From: an uncultured Spirochaetota bacterium
GTDB lineage: Bacteria > Spirochaetota > Spirochaetia > SZUA-6 > Fen-1364
Assembly: GCA_963820525.1 (NCBI GenBank)
Contig: CAWGAA010000001.1
Coordinates: forward strand, 2,784,001 to 2,848,000
Direction of reading: 5' to 3'
Length of the DNA: 64,000 nt
Below are positions 15,001 through 27,000 of the stretch, in pieces. Made by a program: the position numbers. Each line of letters begins with the position of its first letter. Position 1 is the stretch's first letter.

Positions 15001-18000
15001 ACCGGAGGCCCGTATAGATACGTTCGCCACCCCGGGTACGTCGGGTTTATCGTCTTGAATCTGGCTACGCCTCTCATTCTGGGGTCCCTTTGGGCGCTGA
15101 TTCCGGCAGCCGTCATGATGGTGCTTTTCATCGTTCGCACCGCTTTAGAGGATGCAACGCTGAGGAAAGAGCTGGATGGCTATCAAGAGTATGCGATGAG
15201 GGTTCGCTACAAGCTAGTCCTGGGGATTTGGTGAGCTGAGCGGGCCAAGTCTCTTAAGGGGATCAGCTCTATTGAAGAGGGCAATCGGTTTCTTCGGGCT
15301 GTATTCACGGAGAAGCTCAACAAAAAGCTGGCTGTTCTTCCTGTTTCACAGACCAACTTTCACCACCTCGTGGACCACAGACTTGATCTGCGGAGGATGC
15401 TTTGCTGGGAAGAACTACACAGCGTTAGCCATGACCGGGTGGTAAGACACCGTAGCCTTTTGTATCAGATCCTTCGGGACAACCGCCCAAGGCCAAGACA
15501 CAAGGATCATGTGATTGTTCAGGGCTGGTTGGATGGCTCTTTGCATATCTATTTCAAGGGCAAGGAGCTGAAGGTACAGAAAGTGACGGACATTTCCAGG
15601 TAAGAGGTCTGATGGGGACATTTCTAATGAGTCTGGACAATGCGTAGCACGCGCTCTTGACAAGAGCTATGCCTGCTGCTACTGTTTTATTTCGCAGGGG
15701 AAAGAGTTTATCTCGCCCAACAGTACTACCTTGATGAAGGGGGTAGTCTATCCTAAGGGCTAGCTATATCAGACTTTCGCAGCCAATCAGCCTTTCAAGG
15801 CTAAGAGAATGCTGAATTCAATAAAGTAGGCTACCTCGCACTGGAATGGAGATGATGAGCGCAACCAAGAAAGCTACAACCTCAAAGTCGTCAAAGATTG
15901 CCTCGGGCTCATCTACAAAAGCTCGTAAGATCACTTTGAGGCCTTTGTCATCACCCCTAAAGGTCAAATCAACTTCCGTATCTGACTCCCATAGGTCCAT
16001 CATGGTGATTTCCGAGAACGGCAAGGAAGTCCGGCTACTTCTACACCGTTTTGCACTCGTCGGGCCCAGCGACAAGATCTTGTTGGACTCGGCACAAGCC
16101 TCCCGAATTTTTGTTGAGTCTGCGGATCCATCTAGAAAGGCCATACCCGTTTCGCCGCACTTTGAGAAAAGGTCAACTTTACGCTTGGGAGCAAGAGACT
16201 ATTCGATTCTCGTGAAGGAAATAACCACTCCAAGCGACCTCAAGGAATACGAGTATCTAGAGGGCTTTCACTATAAGACTTCCTCTGCCATCGTTACTGA
16301 CGAAGATGAGCCGAGCAAAAGCGGCCTCAATGTTGGTGGAAGAAAAGCCATACTTATCGCCTACATCCAAGTTGGCAAGCGCATGATACCTGCCGGGTAC
16401 ATAGATCTCCAAATGCCTTTGCTAATGGTAAAGCCAAGACACGAGCTCTTTAACAACGGCTTTTTCCACCCTGATCGCGATATCTCTTGGGATACATGGG
16501 ATATCAAGAGCATGAGGAAATACGTAAATCTGATTGTTAGGATTGCAAGAATAGTGACAAGCCCCGATCTTAGGGGCTTAGGTCTTGCACGCATAATAAT
16601 CGATGCTGCTAAAGACTATGCCAGAGAACGGTGGCATGTCTATGGCAAGTCTCCACTCTTCATGGAAATCTCAGCTGAAATGCTCAAGTACATGGACTTC
16701 GTGACATCTGCTGGAATGCATTTTGTCGGTAACACCGAAGGAAATCTTTCGAGAGTTCACAAAGATCTACTTCAAATGCAGAGAGGCCAGAAACTCACTT
16801 TTGGGATTATGACACTTCAGAAAAAGTATCTCACGAACTTAAGGCATCTATCGGAAAGTCTACACATCTCTTTTCCAGAGGTGCTCGATAGACTGAAGGC
16901 ACTTACTAAAAACTCTAGCGAAAAAGAGCTTCGATCAAAACTGAATAAATTGAGTGGTCAAGAATGGTTCCTATTCAAAAGAGTGCTCAGATTCCCTATT
17001 CCATATTTTATATGTGGCCTAGATGATGCGTCCGAATCATTTGTACAAAAACACTCACTAACCCCTCCAAGCAAGACTACCCAAAACAAGACATTTCAAT
17101 CTGCAAGGATTGGACTTAAGGATATTAGAGCTACCTCGACATACGAGATCCCAGACAGTGAGCAAGCTCGCGCGATACGTGACTGTTTTGGACTTGATGG
17201 GAATACTTTGAAGGTATCTCTCGTCGGACCTGTCACAATAGAGGCCTCGGGGGGAAACATCATTCTGATTACGGGTCCAAGCGGAAGCGGAAAAAGTGTA
17301 CTTTTGCGAGCAATCGCAGATGACAGTGAGACGAAACTAATTCATACCACATATATAAAAACCGTTGACAAACCATTCGTAGTTGGTTGGCTGACCGAAA
17401 TTAATAGTGATAAACCCATTATTGAATACTTCAGTGGTATTTGGGGAATGGAATCCTCTATTTCTGCATTAAATCAAGCAGGATTGTCCGAAGCATTTGT
17501 ATATCTGAGGCCATATAAACTCTTAAGTAGAGGACAACAATATCGTGCGCGTCTAGCTGCGCTTAGCCTTGGCTCGGCTAACGTTTGGCTTATGGATGAG
17601 TTCTGCGCAGACCTTGATCCCTTCACTGCCCGAATTGTATCAAATAATTTGCGGAAGCACGTTGTGAGAACTGGAAGGATCGCGATAGTTGCCGCAGCAA
17701 ACAACGCTCACTACATAGACGCGTTGATGCCCAACAGGATCATCTACCTTAGGCACAACGGCCGTTGCGAGGTATTTAAATATAAGGAATACATAGATGA
17801 GTTTCGTATCAACGCAAGCTGAAAAGTTTGCAGCGGTTTTCGATAGATCTCCTTATCAGTCCACTGATCCGATCGTTAAAATTCAGTACGTTCAAAAGGG
17901 CAATAATGTTGTTTTTGGTCGAACTCTATCAGGCGAGAACTATGACAAACTAATCTACCTCGGCAAGGTTTACGAGAATACCGCCGGGAAAAACTACCTT

Positions 18001-24000: not shown

Positions 24001-27000
24001 TCGATGAGGCCGAGCGGATCATGGAACAGTCCCGATCTATACGCAACAAGAGCTACGGTGTTCTTAGAGATCTCTTAGATAATGCGGATGACCATGGCGG
24101 AATGACCTCAACCATCTATTATGTTGCTGCTACCCCGGAAATGTTTGAAACTGCAAGCGGTTTTGCTGAATACGACGCACTACGTTCGCGGCTTTCTAAC
24201 ATCGCTATCGCCTATGCCCCCGACTTAATAGATTGGCGCGGTACTCTTGTTAACCTAGTGAAGACCCCAATGAGTCCCGAGAACCTATCTTCTTTAGCGC
24301 GAAAAGTTATCGGAATCCACTCTATTGCCCGTCAATGGAATCCATCTTCTATCCTTTCTGAGGACTTGATCGATAAGATTATTGAAAAGGTAGTTGCTGG
24401 CGTCTTTTCATCTTCCAAGCCTCGTATAGTAACCTCTTTCTTCGCTAATCTGCTTGAGCTTCTGGAACAGAATAGAGAATATCCGCTAAACGATGGTATC
24501 GAAAGCGTATTGTCCTACATAGTGCCAATCCTCAAGACGAAGCCAAAAGCAAAGTCTTGGGAATAGACCCAATGATTTCAAACCAACTAAAGCTCAGGCG
24601 GAACATTCGCTACCTCAAGAGAGGCGTATTCCCGCCTGAAGACATTGAACAATTTACTTTTGGTCGCGAGCGTGAATTGGCTGTCATTCAGAAAAAGCTA
24701 TCCGAAGTAAAGGATGGTTGCTGTAGATCTCTCTTTATTCAGGGCGTGTACGGACGAGGGAAATCACATTTATTAAAGTCAATTGAGGCCTCAGGTCTAC
24801 AGAGAGGATTTGCTGTGGCTTGGGTTACAATAGACGGATATGCGCATGCCTTCAATCACCCAACTAGGTATCTGCATTCCATTTCGGAAAGCATTCGCTT
24901 TCCATCCAGTCCTTATCGAGGTCTTGCGGCCAACGCTCGTGCTTGGTTATCGGGCGACAAACGTGAGACCCTTCTTTCATATCTCAGAAGCTCTCGCAAT
25001 ACTTGGATGTCTTTTGCACTTCAATCAATTGCAAGAGATCATCCTTCGTTTCTCGAAAACCATTACAACAGCATTATTGAGAGTCGAGACCTCTTGGGCA
25101 AGAACGGTAAACAATGGTTTGAGCTGGTCGTAGAACGGCTAGATGATATTAGCCGTTTATGTAAGCTTGTAGGACACGGCGGAGTCATTTACCTTTTTGA
25201 TGAGATTGAATCAATCGCCACCCAATTGTCCACGATTAGGCAGAGGCTATTGTCCTATGAGTTTTTAAATATGCTTATCGATGAACGTCGACATGCCCAT
25301 AGCTTTCTTGCATTCGCGGCTACCCCAGATTTTGGAAATAAGATATTGGAAGATGTAGCAGCTATTTCAAACTATGAAGCTGATTATGCTGATGCATGCA
25401 GATTCATTAGGAAATGGATTTCTAACAGCGTAGACTGCATAAATATCAACAGGTTATCAAAAGACTGTCTCTTCCTTCTCTGTGAGCATATTCGAACTAT
25501 TCATGAGAAGGCGTATGAATGGAAATCAAACGGGGCAGTATCCTCGGAGAGCATTAGGACGTTGGTTAGCGAGTGTTTCGCAAAAAACCTTGGAACGAGA
25601 GAGATTGTCAGAACAGTCGTTCATCTTCTTGAGGTCCATGAGCAGCTCTCTCATACGCATTCTTCCAGTCATAGCAGACTGAACGACGAAATCAAATGAA
25701 AGTTTGACCATTGTCTCAAGAAGTCTATTAAGATATTTGTGTCACTTATTGCTATCCGCATGCTCTTCGCTCAACTCCGCTTCGGCATCAGAAATTGTCA
25801 AGATAGACAAAGCTGCCGCTTTGCTTATGCTTCTGAGACTGACCTATATAAGAACCGTTTGAATCTTGATGGTTTCTCAATCCCGAGGCATCCTCCTGGC
25901 TCCTTTTTCTGCCAGCCATACCTCTCAAACTCGCGCATGAGAGCACTGTAGCTGCATCGGAAAGAAGCGCGTGCGCATATGCCCGAAATGGAATTGCCTG
26001 AATTGAGATGCCGTATTTAGACTCGTTTATATGTCCCCTTACCCCTTCACCTCCAGTATCTCCTCAGGTATATGTGTAATAAGCTTCACCAGTTCCTCGA
26101 ATCTAAAGTCAATGTCCATCACGGCATACATCTCCTTCTTGGAGTTGTAGATCGGCATCGCCGCCGTCATGATCAGCTTGTCCGTGTACTTGGAGAAAAA
26201 GAGATCCGAGTAATACGGCTCTCCGGTCTTCAGGACCGCGACAAACCAGTCATGCTTCCTGAAGTCCTTGTTCATGAGGTTTCTGAAAAGACTCTTCTCC
26301 CCGCGCTGGGTGTGCGCCTGGGAGATGCGCAGGCCCTCCAGGTTTGTCACGGCAAGAAGCTGGATGGAGGCCTCCCGCGTCACCACGTCATGGAGGTAGC
26401 TCTCCATGCGCTCTGCATCCAGGGAGCGCACCTCCTCTGAGACGGAGATGTGCTGGGCGATGTGGCGGGCCTTTTCAATCGCGGCCTCTTTAGCTTTCTG
26501 GAAGTCGGAGACGAAAAGCGAGGGCAGGAAATGCTTTGCCTGCGCCACAAGCTCATCAGCGGAAATGCTTGTGGTTCGGCCTTGGGCATACTGCTCAGTG
26601 ACCCAGGCGTTGATGTGCTTGATGCCGGGGTGGCGCTTGACCACCGGCTCCATGGCCCTGCCCGTGAGCTGCGGGATGTTTTTGTTTATCCATTGCGCAA
26701 TTCCCGCCATGCCGGATTTGTCCGTCACCATCACGCGGATGGGCCTGTTCAGAAGAGCCTCAGTATCAAAAATGTTATAGATCTCCGGGTTCTTGAGGAT
26801 GCCGTCCGCGTGGATGCCCGCGCGGGTCACGTTGAACTCGACCCCACAAAGGGATAGTTGGGTGCAACGGGAGCCTGGATCTCCGTCCGGAAATAGTCAG
26901 CAATCTCCGTGATGACACGGGTGTTCATGCCATCCGGCGTTCCCTTAAGCCCTATGTACTCCACCACCGCGGCTTCAAGCGGCGGGTTTCCCGTGCGCTC

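Follow-up and report, generated by a model that had tools for sequence, protein, structure and literature searches.

The window, i.e., the whole stretch of 64,000 nt of DNA analysed here, carries eight ORFs on the + strand (g71 to g78, spanning 15846-25699) that are co-directional and mostly overlapping, as the genome-wide survey's note had claimed and as the ORF calls reproduced. Their spacings are, in order, -26, -23, +1, -4, -19, +2 and -10 nt. The first six agree with the earlier values, and the last one, previously given as +5, holds only if g78 is read from the ATG at 24572 instead of from its TTG start; likewise, the start formerly assigned to g71, 15852, is an in-frame ATG, but the second one, the first lying at 15846. 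The genes are embedded in a low-GC block (15300..26000, borders approximate), recognised by its composition (GC of 0.417-0.460 over 16000-25999 versus 0.62-0.65 in the host flank at 8000-11999) and by the absence of g73 from relatives, since none of the 40 related genomes searched contains it. Around this block, which is foreign DNA acquired horizontally, neither a tRNA nor an integrase was seen, and no flanking repeat was significant. The same window also holds other defence-type genes, namely PDC-S01 (3e-90), a GajB-like helicase-nuclease (1.7e-75) and SoFic (9e-117).

The family matches reported earlier for g71 to g78 were recovered with Pfam, NCBIfam and PADLOC. The first cassette gene, g71 (15846..17822, +), encodes a protein of 658 aa in which Pfam, a structure model and motifs delineate a GNAT acyltransferase region (aa ~51-400) and one ABC-type ATPase domain (aa ~446-658). 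Pfam detects ABC_tran (8e-10) and, weakly, Acetyltransf_1 (0.0022, residues 232-262), the PADLOC match to mad3 is restricted to about 30 residues at the P-loop (residues 461-490), and the motifs RGLGLA, GPSGSGKS, LSRGQ, DEF and an H-loop are present. The structure model of aa 51-440 (pLDDT 82.5) matches 197 chains of the GNAT fold at a Z of at least 8, headed by Mom (8bv8, Z 11.9) and YhbS (11.8), and Foldseek retrieves PatZ (7e-4), NAT10 (1.3e-3) and Mom (1.7e-3). Among the top fold matches are a DNA modifier, Mom, and two RNA cytidine acetylases, NAT10 and TmcA, but these matches are tied within 1 Z unit, so that nucleic-acid enzymes are not singled out.

The second gene, g72 (17797..19194, +), encodes a HerA/FtsK-type P-loop ATPase of 465 aa, as indicated by Pfam (DUF87, 5.5e-7), PADLOC (mad8, 4.1e-19, profile positions 13-308 of 314, plus 12 HerA models at 5e-14 to 1e-6) and its motifs; the NCBIfam model helicase_HerA matches it at 4e-08, with 32 bits vs a cut-off of 970. 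It is the most conserved cassette protein (52-75% identical across loci), with a Walker A (GTRGSGKS) and a Walker B (DEAH) that are invariant in all 24 copies. By contrast, g73 (19172..20374, +; 400 aa) evolves fast, its identity across loci being only 23-45%, the lowest of the five core proteins. It has no Pfam, NCBIfam, PADLOC or PDB-profile match, and the named atlas clusters nearest to it, which are leads only, contain FokI recognition domains (0.88), AlwI (0.87) and BpuJI_N (0.86); it is probably a multi-winged-helix DNA-recognition protein.

The protein encoded by g74 (20376-21260, +) was described previously as a PLD nuclease, and the PLD fold stands, but not a plain PLD architecture: the structural comparisons describe a fusion of a predicted RelE/ParE-fold domain and a single-HKD PLD domain. 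The N-terminal domain (aa 1-87, 20376..20636, +) adopts in its model the RelE/ParE toxin fold, with VIA-align matches to YafQ (4q2u_B, Z 9.7, rmsd 2.2, 82 aa), RelE (3bpq_D, 9.2), RelE1 (9g12, 9.1), YoeB (2a6q, 8.7) and ParE2 (5czf, 8.4). It has no sequence-family match, and its residues D42, H43, R54, R64 and G80 are invariant in 111/111 relatives. The C-terminal domain (aa ~118-290, 20727..21245, +) is a PLD-family nuclease domain according to Foldseek (SauUSI at 4.6e-6, and also NgoAVII, Zucchini, BfiI, NucT and Nuc) and VIA (Z of 15.9 for SauUSI, 14.5 for NucT, 13.3 for Nuc and 13.0 for BfiI); Pfam recognises it weakly (PLDc_2, 5.7e-4), and the window copy bears the motif LHTKLY...GSSNLT. 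The RelE/ParE-fold domain is conserved better than the HKD site, whose His is kept in 103 of the 111 relatives and lost in eight, through two independent losses. Among genomic copies the site is missing from 7/25: in the clade of L013 and L019-L022, where the central Gly of the acetyl-CoA loop of the GNAT is changed as well, and in L004 and L005, which keep the GNAT motif. The mechanism proposed earlier, in which DNA is handed over to the HKD nuclease, therefore cannot be the whole one, and the strict conservation of the RelE-like domain is a hint that the output is abortive infection at the RNA level and not classical restriction.

The last core gene, g75 (21257..22396, +), encodes a P-loop ATPase of 379 aa whose Walker motifs, A (GxxGxGKSH) and B (IDE(L/M)D), are conserved in 23/23 copies; Walker motifs are indeed intact in every cassette copy. 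No family could be assigned to it with Pfam, NCBIfam or PADLOC (Pfam matches appear only at 0.06-0.1), a PDB profile search gave TnsC at 0.078, and hhalign of g75 against g77 gave 12.7%. The nearest atlas clusters (0.98), in which 20-29% of the members carry PF10923, are BrxC/BrxD- and KAP-like. The former label 'Cdc6' goes back to weak matches, and g75 appears to belong, distantly, to the AAA+ clade termed Orc/Cdc6-related in the literature.

The three remaining genes are an accessory add-on of this lineage. No family match was obtained for g76 (22378..23256, +; 292 aa) with Pfam, NCBIfam or PADLOC, its sole match being a partial one in locus L025 (aa 212-289, E 8e-14). The BrxD-like (PF10923) ATPase g77 (23259..24566, +; 435 aa) matches Pfam BrxC_BrxD (2e-50) and, in PADLOC, BrxD (3.7e-38) and SngB (4.9e-29), while its NCBIfam BrxD score of 128 bits is under the cut-off of 350. 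Its paralogue g78 (24557..25699, +; 380 aa; 24% identity to g77, E 3e-16) is a second BrxD-like ATPase (Pfam BrxC_BrxD 2.9e-28, PADLOC BrxD 6.5e-16). Among the fetched loci, homologues of g77 and g78 occur only in L025.

Recurrence was counted in 30 loci fetched from named genomes (L001-L030). The same-order recurrence noted earlier in 7 of 7 loci becomes stronger here: g71-g75 keep order and strand in 22/30 (L001-L009, L012-L023 and L025), with identities to the window proteins of 23%-75% across the five proteins and E values mostly from 1e-20 to 0, so that the conserved order is not due to chance. As for the others, L010 lacks g72, its cassette either working or decaying without HerA; in L011, g74 is cut and g75 missing; L024 consists of a g71 remnant with a frameshift; L026 and L027 run into the ends of their contigs; in L028 and L029 the context is another one, of DISARM type; and L030 stands for an archaeal protein whose domains come in the opposite order. 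The five-gene hosts comprise Alpha-, Beta- and Gammaproteobacteria, Binatia and one unclassified bacterium, the HerA tree is in conflict with taxonomy, one 90%-identity HerA cluster covers Pseudomonas aeruginosa, Zestomonas and Rhodovulum, and no flank gene family is common to more than three loci. Together with the foreign GC, the conserved order, the tree conflict and the varied flanks support g71-g75 as a self-contained, horizontally mobile five-gene core, as had been claimed. In 11/23 loci, genes of mobile elements or toxins (conjugation, integrase, transposase, TniQ, ParE, PIN or AbiEi) were matched at a distance of up to 3.6 kb (the scan covered 137/158 flank ORFs), which adds to the defence-type setting; against it, the near flanks of about half of the loci (12/23) are purely housekeeping.

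Several described systems resemble this cassette, which qualifies its former status as undescribed (the PMC papers below are cited from the parts consulted). The general theme is that of the 'HerA/FtsK capture systems' (Rakesh, Aravind and Krishnan, NAR 2024, PMC10853773), which combine a HerA/FtsK with an Orc/Cdc6 AAA+, a multi-wHTH protein and a nuclease, and for which a logic of localising on invader DNA, pumping and cutting has been proposed. The HerA g72, the BrxC/D-like AAA+ g75, the FokI-like binder g73 and the nuclease g74 fit this theme, and the general form of the logic put forward earlier (HerA, DNA binder, ATPase and nuclease) is supported. However, the capture systems described there use REase-fold nucleases, and their Orc/Cdc6 protein carries an inactive REase as an insertion, whereas the cassette has the RelE-fold and HKD fusion and is led by a GNAT-ABC gene, neither of which figures in the sections of that paper that were consulted. 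A HerA and GNAT variant has been published too, BRC (BREX-Related Capture, NAR 2026, PMC12839542), which shares with the cassette the HerA/FtsK translocase, a multi-HTH DNA binder and a BrxC-like Orc/Cdc6 ATPase; a subset of BRC systems also has a GNAT, for which modification of host DNA is proposed. Nonetheless, the BRC core includes PglZ, a STAND NTPase, DUF4007 and often TGT, none of which was matched by the eight window proteins in Pfam, NCBIfam or PADLOC, and, unlike in g71, fusion of its GNAT to an ABC ATPase is not described in the sections consulted.

Other systems share less. MADS (mad1-mad8) couples ATPases with nucleases (MAD3/4, MAD7/8) and recognises self by an m6A DNA mark (PMC13662399); g72 matches almost the entire MAD8 model, but the window, unlike MADS, is without methyltransferase, kinase or Toprim partner. 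The (PIN)-GNAT-EVE operons bring together GNATs, PUA-like modified-base domains, ASCH proteins and AAA ATPases in conflict contexts (PMC7641849), and their GNATs have been proposed to acetylate a DNA base (Iyer et al. 2013, as cited therein); they are characterised by an EVE fusion, PIN and AAA_17, with neither an ABC ATPase fusion nor a HerA or DISARM chassis in the portion of that paper considered. Sir2-HerA and DUF4297-HerA also join a HerA-type ring ATPase to an effector enzyme, although these systems consist of two genes, the effector being Sir2 or DUF4297, and their HerA models match only the C-terminal part of g72. Finally, DISARM class 2 (DrmE, DrmA, DrmB, DrmC, DrmMII) and the cassette both end in a PLD-family nuclease and are both restriction-modification-like, but DrmA, DrmB and DrmE have no match in the window and g74 matches no DrmC model even at E<=0.1, the GNAT-ABC family being their only link.

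That link bears on the function of g71. Its homologues (29-32% identical) head DrmE-DrmA-DrmB-DrmC operons, of class 2, in five of the six informative loci (L028, L029, L032, L033 and L035). The canonical DISARM operon contains a methyltransferase (PMC9142583, in the part consulted), and no methyltransferase was matched in the visible flanks of the GNAT-ABC-headed DISARM loci, nor a DNA methyltransferase among the 137 ORFs scanned in the flanks of the five-gene loci; a PLD nuclease accompanies GNAT-ABC in both chassis. In addition, an ASCH domain (best E 2.4e-16) forms the C-terminus of 5/6 of the DISARM-linked proteins, and its closest relative of solved structure is YqfB, an N4-acetylcytidine amidohydrolase (5e-6). 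Based on these two links, g71 is a putative ATP-driven nucleic-acid acetylase providing a self-mark, and the earlier view of the GNAT as a modifier gains real support. The clade of L013 and L019-L022, in which HKD loss coincides with the changed Gly, also speaks for a modifier, whereas L004 and L005, with the loss but with the GNAT motif kept, speak against one. The DISARM-linked homologues are distant, so the function may differ between subclades; the window g71 has no ASCH tail, which is found in only 9/75 full-length representatives of the family, and the chemistry of the ASCH and YqfB type would suit DNA no better than RNA or free nucleosides.

Taken together, g71-g75 probably form a defence cassette against invaders (phage or plasmid) that was acquired horizontally; the defence setting, the mobile core and the general logic of the earlier interpretation are thus supported, while the undescribed status and the label Cdc6 need qualification and the plain PLD does not hold. 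As to how it works, we lean, tentatively, towards two modules. The first would be g71, whose GNAT would use acetyl-CoA and whose ABC ATPase would use ATP to mark nucleic acid, most likely the cell's own DNA, with an acyl group, as the counterpart of the methyltransferase role in restriction-modification. The second would be a HerA/FtsK 'capture'-type restriction machine made of g72-g75: the fast-evolving, FokI-like g73 would select DNA, g75 and the ring ATPase g72 would load on it and pump it, and g74 would be the effector, its PLD domain cutting DNA, presumably as a dimer forming one HKD site, and its more strictly conserved RelE-like domain contributing a second activity, either RNA cleavage or complex control. 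Whereas the gene set with its conservation and mobility, the folds and the motifs are observed, we infer the formation of such a complex, this order of events, the GNAT substrate and any role in immunity.

A less likely, though serious, alternative is the same defence cassette without self-marking and with abortive-infection logic, g71 being a sensor or, as the note had allowed too, a second effector: g73, g75 and g72 would sense foreign DNA and trigger cell shutdown or an attack on the invader, the RelE-like domain would cleave mRNA, the PLD domain would cut DNA, and the GNAT would acetylate protein, aminoacyl-tRNA or RNA, with the ASCH tail, where present, reversing or reading the acetylation. 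The invariance of the RelE-like residues, the Z of 8-9.7 to RelE, YafQ and YoeB toxins, the double loss of the HKD residues while all ATPases stay intact and the acetylcytidine (an RNA-type nucleoside) on which the closest solved relative of the ASCH tail acts all speak for it; moreover, GNAT domains are treated as toxins or co-effectors in PMC7641849 and PMC10853773, and the capture systems in the latter are described without a modification step, as far as the consulted parts go. On the other hand, GNAT-ABC occupies the place of the methyltransferase in DISARM operons with no methyltransferase in view, an antitoxin-like partner of the RelE-like domain was not identified, and the assignment of that domain is structural, without sequence-family support, its catalytic competence being putative. 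The ParE-type members of this fold are not known to be RNases, which also counts against this alternative.

It is improbable that the cassette instead serves mobile elements, integrative or conjugative ones, as a module for their maintenance, for addiction or for the exclusion of competitors, for example by destroying rival plasmids or by holding the element in its place. Conjugation genes (TrbI, CagX, VirB8, TrbL, TraK), integrases, transposases and TniQ adjoin the cassette in L004, L005, L013, L014, L017 and L023; the combination of a RelE/ParE fold with a nuclease would be in keeping with addiction, and stand-alone relatives of the ABC domain sit beside ParB-like genes in SSU5-like phage-plasmids and on 7 viral contigs. 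Nevertheless, the element types vary (ICE-like, Tn7-like, integrase islands), which, with the lack of a widely shared flank family, marks the cassette as cargo and not backbone; near flanks are purely housekeeping in 12/23 loci, and the cassette has no match on 72,556 plasmids (1e-20) and no full-length one on phages or viral contigs. Since excluding rival elements is a form of defence, this explanation overlaps the main reading. A cellular DNA-repair or chromosome-handling module with no conflict role is very improbable: HerA-type ATPases and nucleases do cooperate in archaeal end resection (HerA-NurA), and helicase_HerA does match g72, far under its cut-off, but the patchy distribution, the foreign GC block, the incongruent tree, the fast-evolving DNA binder and the neighbouring defence genes argue against it, and none of the eight proteins matches NurA, Mre11 or Rad50 in Pfam, NCBIfam or PADLOC.

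If the two-module reading with g71 as self-marking enzyme is true, self DNA would be marked in these bacteria by acetylation instead of methylation.

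The cassette formed by g71-g75, the first five of eight genes on the forward strand, is real, conserved and mobile, and it is very probably a defence system. Re-derivation of the open reading frames bore out the positions that the genome-wide survey's note had given for all eight genes, i.e., g71 (15846-17822, 658 aa), g72 (17797-19194, 465 aa), g73 (19172-20374, 400 aa), g74 (20376-21260, 294 aa), g75 (21257-22396, 379 aa) and the accessory g76 (22378-23256, 292 aa), g77 (23259-24566, 435 aa) and g78 (24557-25699, 380 aa), and the family matches that it had listed for them were reproduced with Pfam, PADLOC and NCBIfam. 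The last gene is read here from a TTG start, and the spacing of +5 reported before it is obtained with the ATG at 24572. Since the genes overlap by 26, 23, 4 and 19 bases or are separated by gaps of 1 and 2 bases, they can be regarded as one operon-like unit. The GC content across 16-26 kb of the window is 0.42-0.46, versus 0.62-0.65 in the host genes leftward of it. The window has no tRNA, none of its ORFs that were scanned was recognised as an integrase, and no att-like flanking repeat was found around the cassette, the best direct repeat being 14 nt long; the scans for promoters (15 sites versus 17.7 expected) and terminators (9 versus 8.6 expected) stayed at chance level.

Other genes of defence type are encoded near the cassette. 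Upstream, at a distance of 2 kb and in a stretch of intermediate GC, a DUF4143/AAA_14 ATPase (12576-13772, +) matches the PADLOC candidate single-gene system PDC-S01 (3.2e-90). Downstream there is a 932-aa UvrD-type helicase with a C-terminal PD-(D/E)XK nuclease domain (28256-31054, -; GC 0.47-0.51), which is GajB-like (1.7e-75), has no GajA partner in sight and is overlapped at its end by a small DUF1232 gene (27847-28284, -); it may add a second defence gene to the same island. Further downstream, a Fic-domain protein (38417-39571, +) fits the defence model SoFic (9.3e-117). Short ORFs with HMGL-like or homocitrate-synthase and dCache fragments occupy the right edge of the low-GC block (26039-27344, -) and have the appearance of host genes that decayed or became fused at the border of the insertion.

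The recurrence of the cassette was followed in 30 loci from named genomes (L001-L030), retrieved via an alignment of 27 g71 relatives and then searched by tblastn with the eight window proteins. The order and strand of g71-g72-g73-g74-g75 are kept in 22 of them. As for the others, a Spirochaetia MAG (L010) is without g72; L011 has a shortened g74 and is missing g75; L024 retains a frameshifted g71 remnant only; L026 and L027 are cut off by contig edges; L028 and L029 show a differing, DISARM-type context; and a Bathyarchaeota MAG (L030, 9371-11356) encodes a 661-aa protein whose domains are reversed relative to g71, the GNAT domain following the ABC ATPase, and shows no cassette partner of g71 nearby. 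Among the 30 loci, g76-g78 were found only in L025, the closest relative of the window, which has all eight genes with several frame breaks. Identity to the window protein across loci is 52-75% for g72, 39-62% for g75, 36-63% for g71, 29-58% for g74 and 23-45% for g73, the lowest range, so that the presumed DNA binder is the fastest-evolving of the five. The g71 family (named “ABC-type ATPase with predicted acetyltransferase domain” by JGI) comprises 304 clusters at 90% identity among 8000 candidates scored, and g73 has 61 clusters.

The surroundings of these loci differ from one to another, no gene family being common to more than three loci in the 7-kb flanks. A scan of 137 of the 158 ORFs within 3.6 kb of 23 loci revealed conjugation, integrase, transposase, TniQ, Prim-Pol, ParE, PIN, AbiEi or similar genes beside 11 loci, near flanks with housekeeping genes only in the remaining 12, and no DNA methyltransferase among the 137 ORFs. 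Horizontal transfer of the cassette is indicated by three observations: the maximum-likelihood tree of g72 groups Binatia with an alphaproteobacterium (100/100) and places the Luteimonas copy among those of Caulobacterales and Aminobacter; a single HerA cluster at 90% identity covers Zestomonas carbonaria, Rhodovulum kholense and Pseudomonas aeruginosa; and a search of 40 related genomes, of which 24 belong to the same family and 16 to the same order, found no g73. On 72,556 plasmids there is no g71 match at 1e-20, and on phages and viral contigs only stand-alone ABC domains were matched, the full cassette not being found there. These stand-alone ABC ATPases, 28-37% identical to the C-terminal 40% of g71, are present in the phage records H1-H15 (SSU5-like phage-plasmids of Salmonella, Escherichia and Klebsiella, and some Pseudomonas and Rhizobium phages) and on 7 viral contigs (L041-L047), and in the annotated phage records they often adjoin a ParB-like nuclease gene. 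Regarding individual neighbourhoods, in the Variovorax locus L014 (1968-4024 and 14608-16227) two TniQ genes precede the cassette, which may be a Tn7-like cargo there, and a separate two-HKD PLDc_2 protein is encoded near it; in an alphaproteobacterial MAG (L017, 4364-8033), the cassette is immediately preceded by genes for an AAA ATPase and a large subtilase (S8), which form a pair next to S24 peptidase and TraK genes.

The model of g74 (pLDDT 80.7 overall, 81-93 over residues 1-100) comprises two domains. One, a PLD domain of nuclease type, spans residues 118-290, and its closest structures are SauUSI (4.6e-6), followed by NgoAVII, Zucchini, BfiI, NucT and Nuc, in Foldseek, and SauUSI (Z 15.9), NucT (14.5), Nuc (13.3) and BfiI (13.0) in VIA; the Pfam PLDc_2 match scores 20.2 bits, below the cut-off of 27. 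PLD/HKD nucleases of the Nuc, BfiI and SauUSI type cleave DNA, and their homodimer builds a single active site. The window protein has one HxK...GSxN motif per chain (H209, K211, G236, S237 and N239), and its PLD domain looks competent as far as its residues tell. Residues 1-87 have the RelE/ParE toxin fold (beta-alpha-alpha-beta-beta-beta), with YafQ as the best VIA match of this domain (Z 9.7, rmsd 2.2, 82 of 90 residues), then RelE (9.2), RelE1 (9.1), YoeB (8.7), ParE2 (8.4) and Cami1 (8.3), and more than 15 further entries at Z 6-9, each covering residues 1-87. When 18 N-terminal domains of g74 were searched on their own against Pfam (E<=10), none matched a family, RelE and ParE included; the profiles of g74 and of its N-terminal domain found nothing significant among solved structures, and no antitoxin-like gene was recognised. 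The two domains have been conserved to different degrees. In seven of the 25 genomic copies (L004, L005, L013 and L019-L022), the HKD His is changed to Asn and the Asn of GSxN is missing; of 111 full-length family members, 103 retain the His and 8 have lost it, and the tree requires two independent events for the loss of HKD residues. The RelE-like residues D42, H43, R54, R64 and G80 are invariant in all 111, R78 being kept in 108 and H82 in 109. From this census, PLD activity would be dispensable in some lineages, and the RelE-like domain would not.

At the head of the cassette, g71 joins an N-terminal GNAT domain to a C-terminal ABC ATPase. In the predicted model (residues 51-440, pLDDT 82.5), residues ~51-400 adopt a GNAT fold that 197 chains match at Z>=8, with a tie at the top (phage Mu Mom at Z 11.9 over 167 aligned residues, YhbS at 11.8, and others), and Foldseek retrieves PatZ, HAT1, NAT10, Mom and TmcA at 7e-4 to 7e-3; the profile of this region found nothing significant among solved structures. 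The acetyl-CoA-binding loop (R/Q-x-x-G-x-G/A) reads RGLGLA in the window protein and has stayed intact in 23 of 28 copies; L013 and L019-L022 have a changed central Gly. Residues ~446-658 carry the ABC motifs (Walker A GPSGSGKS, signature LSRGQ, Walker B/D-loop LMDEFCADLD and H-loop NNAHY), with 39.9 bits for Pfam ABC_tran versus a cut-off of 25.

The second ATPase, g72, is of HerA/FtsK type (DUF87 5.5e-7, 30.3 bits versus a cut-off of 23.2), and PADLOC matches it to HerA models down to 4.8e-14 and, across nearly its full length, to the MAD8 model of MADS (4.1e-19). The third, g75, has conserved Walker A and B motifs, BrxC_BrxD, KAP and AAA_22 as its closest atlas clusters (0.98) and weak matches to Pfam Bac_DnaA (0.062) and to TnsC in the PDB (0.078). 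The Walker motifs of all three cassette ATPases are intact in every copy. No family was assigned to g73; its closest named atlas clusters are the recognition domains of FokI (0.88), AlwI and BpuJI (0.86-0.88), which is a lead only, in line with the fold matches of the survey's note (FokI Z 7.7 and BrxA Z 7.4); neither the g73 nor the g75 profile found anything significant among solved structures. The accessory g77 and g78 are mutual paralogues (24% identity, 3e-16) that match BrxC_BrxD (PF10923; 2e-50 and 2.9e-28, respectively), NCBIfam BrxD (128 and 61 bits, cut-off 350) and PADLOC SngB (4.9e-29 and 3.5e-16). Given an hhalign probability of 12.7%, g75 and g77 are not called close paralogues.

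The GNAT-ABC protein also occurs outside this cassette. An exhaustive profile search with the N-terminal region of g71 yielded 318 representatives (E<=0.001) among 1.84 billion, 143 of them at E<=1e-30. In L029, a g71 homologue (32% identical) is followed by DrmE (DrmE_C 1e-43), DrmA (3e-151), DrmB (2e-49) and DrmC (5e-19), and in L028 a GNAT-ABC gene is followed by DrmE and DrmA before the contig ends. A metagenome scan with this DISARM-linked subclade gave 9 loci, four of them long enough to judge (L032-L035), and the arrangement was repeated in L032, L033 and L035; that is, five of the six informative loci are of DISARM type. The exception, L034 (8170-16546), is a distant variant of HerA type and encodes a GNAT-ABC-ASCH protein (790 aa), HerA, a 404-aa ORF without assignment, a 188-aa PLD protein without the RelE-like domain, an AAA_16 ATPase, a BrxC_BrxD-like ATPase and a 149-aa ORF, which makes the extra BrxD-like ATPase recurrent outside the window's lineage. 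The family has two alternative chassis, one HerA-type and the other DISARM. No methyltransferase match was found in the visible flanks of the subclade loci, and L029 has two serine recombinases and a transposase-type HTH around it. The GNAT-ABC proteins of this subclade are about 100 residues longer than g71, and in five of six the tail is an ASCH domain (best 2.4e-16), whose closest solved relatives are YqfB, an N4-acetylcytidine amidohydrolase (4.6e-6 and 5.3e-6). The window protein has no such tail. Across 75 full-length representatives, the ABC part is present in all and the ASCH tail in 9. Thirteen long representatives (P0320-P0441, 699-901 aa) lack an ASCH match at E<=1e-3; in twelve, the C-terminal tail measures 85-162 residues, and among these tails a relaxed search uncovered a divergent ASCH in P0323 and no family for the other 11, mostly unrelated among themselves.

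How does the cassette relate to known systems? The HerA/FtsK capture theme is already published (PMC10853773), so the cassette is not categorically new. In the sections of that article consulted, capture systems join Orc/Cdc6 ATPases, REases and FokI/DndG-like multi-wHTH proteins, with an inactive REase inserted in the Orc/Cdc6 protein and an active REase-fold nuclease, and a subset has a fast-evolving protein of 2-4 wHTH domains that resembles DndG or the DNA-binding domain of FokI. The cassette shares with them the HerA/FtsK-family ATPase in the operon (g72), whereas its nuclease has the PLD/HKD fold instead of the REase fold described in those sections; in g71-g78 there is no Pfam match to the PD-(D/E)XK family. 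It is a new version of the HerA/FtsK capture kind, whose effector has two heads and had gone unrecognised, and whose signature is the GNAT-ABC enzyme. BREX-Related Capture, which according to the consulted part of PMC12839542 adds GNAT and TGT to a PglZ-based set, was rejected after no PglZ, STAND (above cut-off), DUF4007 or TGT match appeared in g71-g78. Likewise, class 2 DISARM (DrmA helicase, DrmB/DUF1998, DrmE and DrmC) has no Drm model at E<=0.1 in these eight genes, and its genes stand only beside distant g71 homologues, not in the window cassette. From MADS, an eight-gene set including a methyltransferase, a kinase, MAD3/MAD4 (ATPase and Toprim) and MAD7/MAD8, mad8 alone matches in full (g72), mad3 matches over ~30 residues and the other models are unmatched. 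BREX consists of BrxA, BrxB, BrxC, the PglX methyltransferase and PglZ, with BrxD in some types only; PglX, PglZ, BrxA and BrxB have no match here, and g77 and g78 stay under the NCBIfam BrxD cut-off. Shango is formed by SngA (TerB), the SngB ATPase and the SngC helicase, of which the SngB model alone was matched in g71-g78. In the texts searched, no description was found of a GNAT-ABC fusion heading HerA-type or DISARM operons or of a RelE-HKD fusion, and the supplements of the comparative papers and the 2020 ABC-ATPase classification may list either of them. No literature was found on six cassette protein accessions, nothing relevant by title or abstract on COG2401/MK0520, and nothing relevant linking DISARM or DrmE with an acetyltransferase; GNAT, ABC, DrmE, HerA and acetyltransferase are all absent from the YprA-helicase preprint, and the term N4-acetylcytosine stands in none of the 12 papers listed on phage and restriction.

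The overlapping genes and their strict co-occurrence suggest that the five proteins act together. By analogy with the capture systems (PMC10853773), g73 would pick the DNA, g75 and g72 would load onto it and translocate it, and g74 would act on the loaded DNA. The putative modifier of nucleic acid is g71. The favoured model, held tentatively and at somewhat less than even confidence, is that g71 marks self and g72-g75 restrict. Several points argue for this role of g71: its family takes the place of the methyltransferase in DISARM and is the sole candidate modifier in either chassis, a PLD nuclease accompanies it in both, some members carry, in the same chain, a domain akin to an enzyme that processes acetylcytidine, and one clade has decayed the acetyl-CoA loop and the HKD site alike. 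The main alternative keeps the defence function and takes the GNAT and RelE-like domains for effectors of abortive infection, with RNA or protein as their target; in its favour are the RelE-like residues, which do not vary, and YqfB, whose chemistry is of the RNA type. This reading is possible, if somewhat less likely than self-marking. Mobile-element maintenance fits the data less well and is improbable, and cellular repair, also a weaker fit, is very improbable. Within the self-marking model, a more specific and doubtful version would have the GNAT-ABC protein act as a DNA acetyltransferase powered by ATP, the host genome receiving N4-acetylcytosine or a related acyl mark as a non-methyl self-signal; one writer would serve at least two chassis (HerA/FtsK with RelE-PLD, and class-2 DISARM), and ASCH would be a built-in reader or eraser in some members of the family.

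If confirmed, the cassette would be a defence system of five genes, compact and clonable, that is spread across bacterial phyla and reaches Pseudomonas aeruginosa isolates, and an addition to the catalogue and to the detection tools, since PADLOC 2.0.0 misses it. Its effector, g74, would combine a RelE-type fold with a PLD nuclease, the RNase-like half being the better conserved. Through the other home of the GNAT-ABC protein, the methyltransferase-less DISARM, and the ASCH domain resembling an acetylcytidine amidohydrolase, the acetyl-marking of DNA becomes a concrete hypothesis, and the old prediction of DNA base acetylation as a bacterial epigenetic self-mark becomes testable. Were it true, this would be a new chemical class of restriction-modification mark, and it could help explain how DISARM discriminates self from non-self, which is termed unclear in the part of PMC9142583 consulted.
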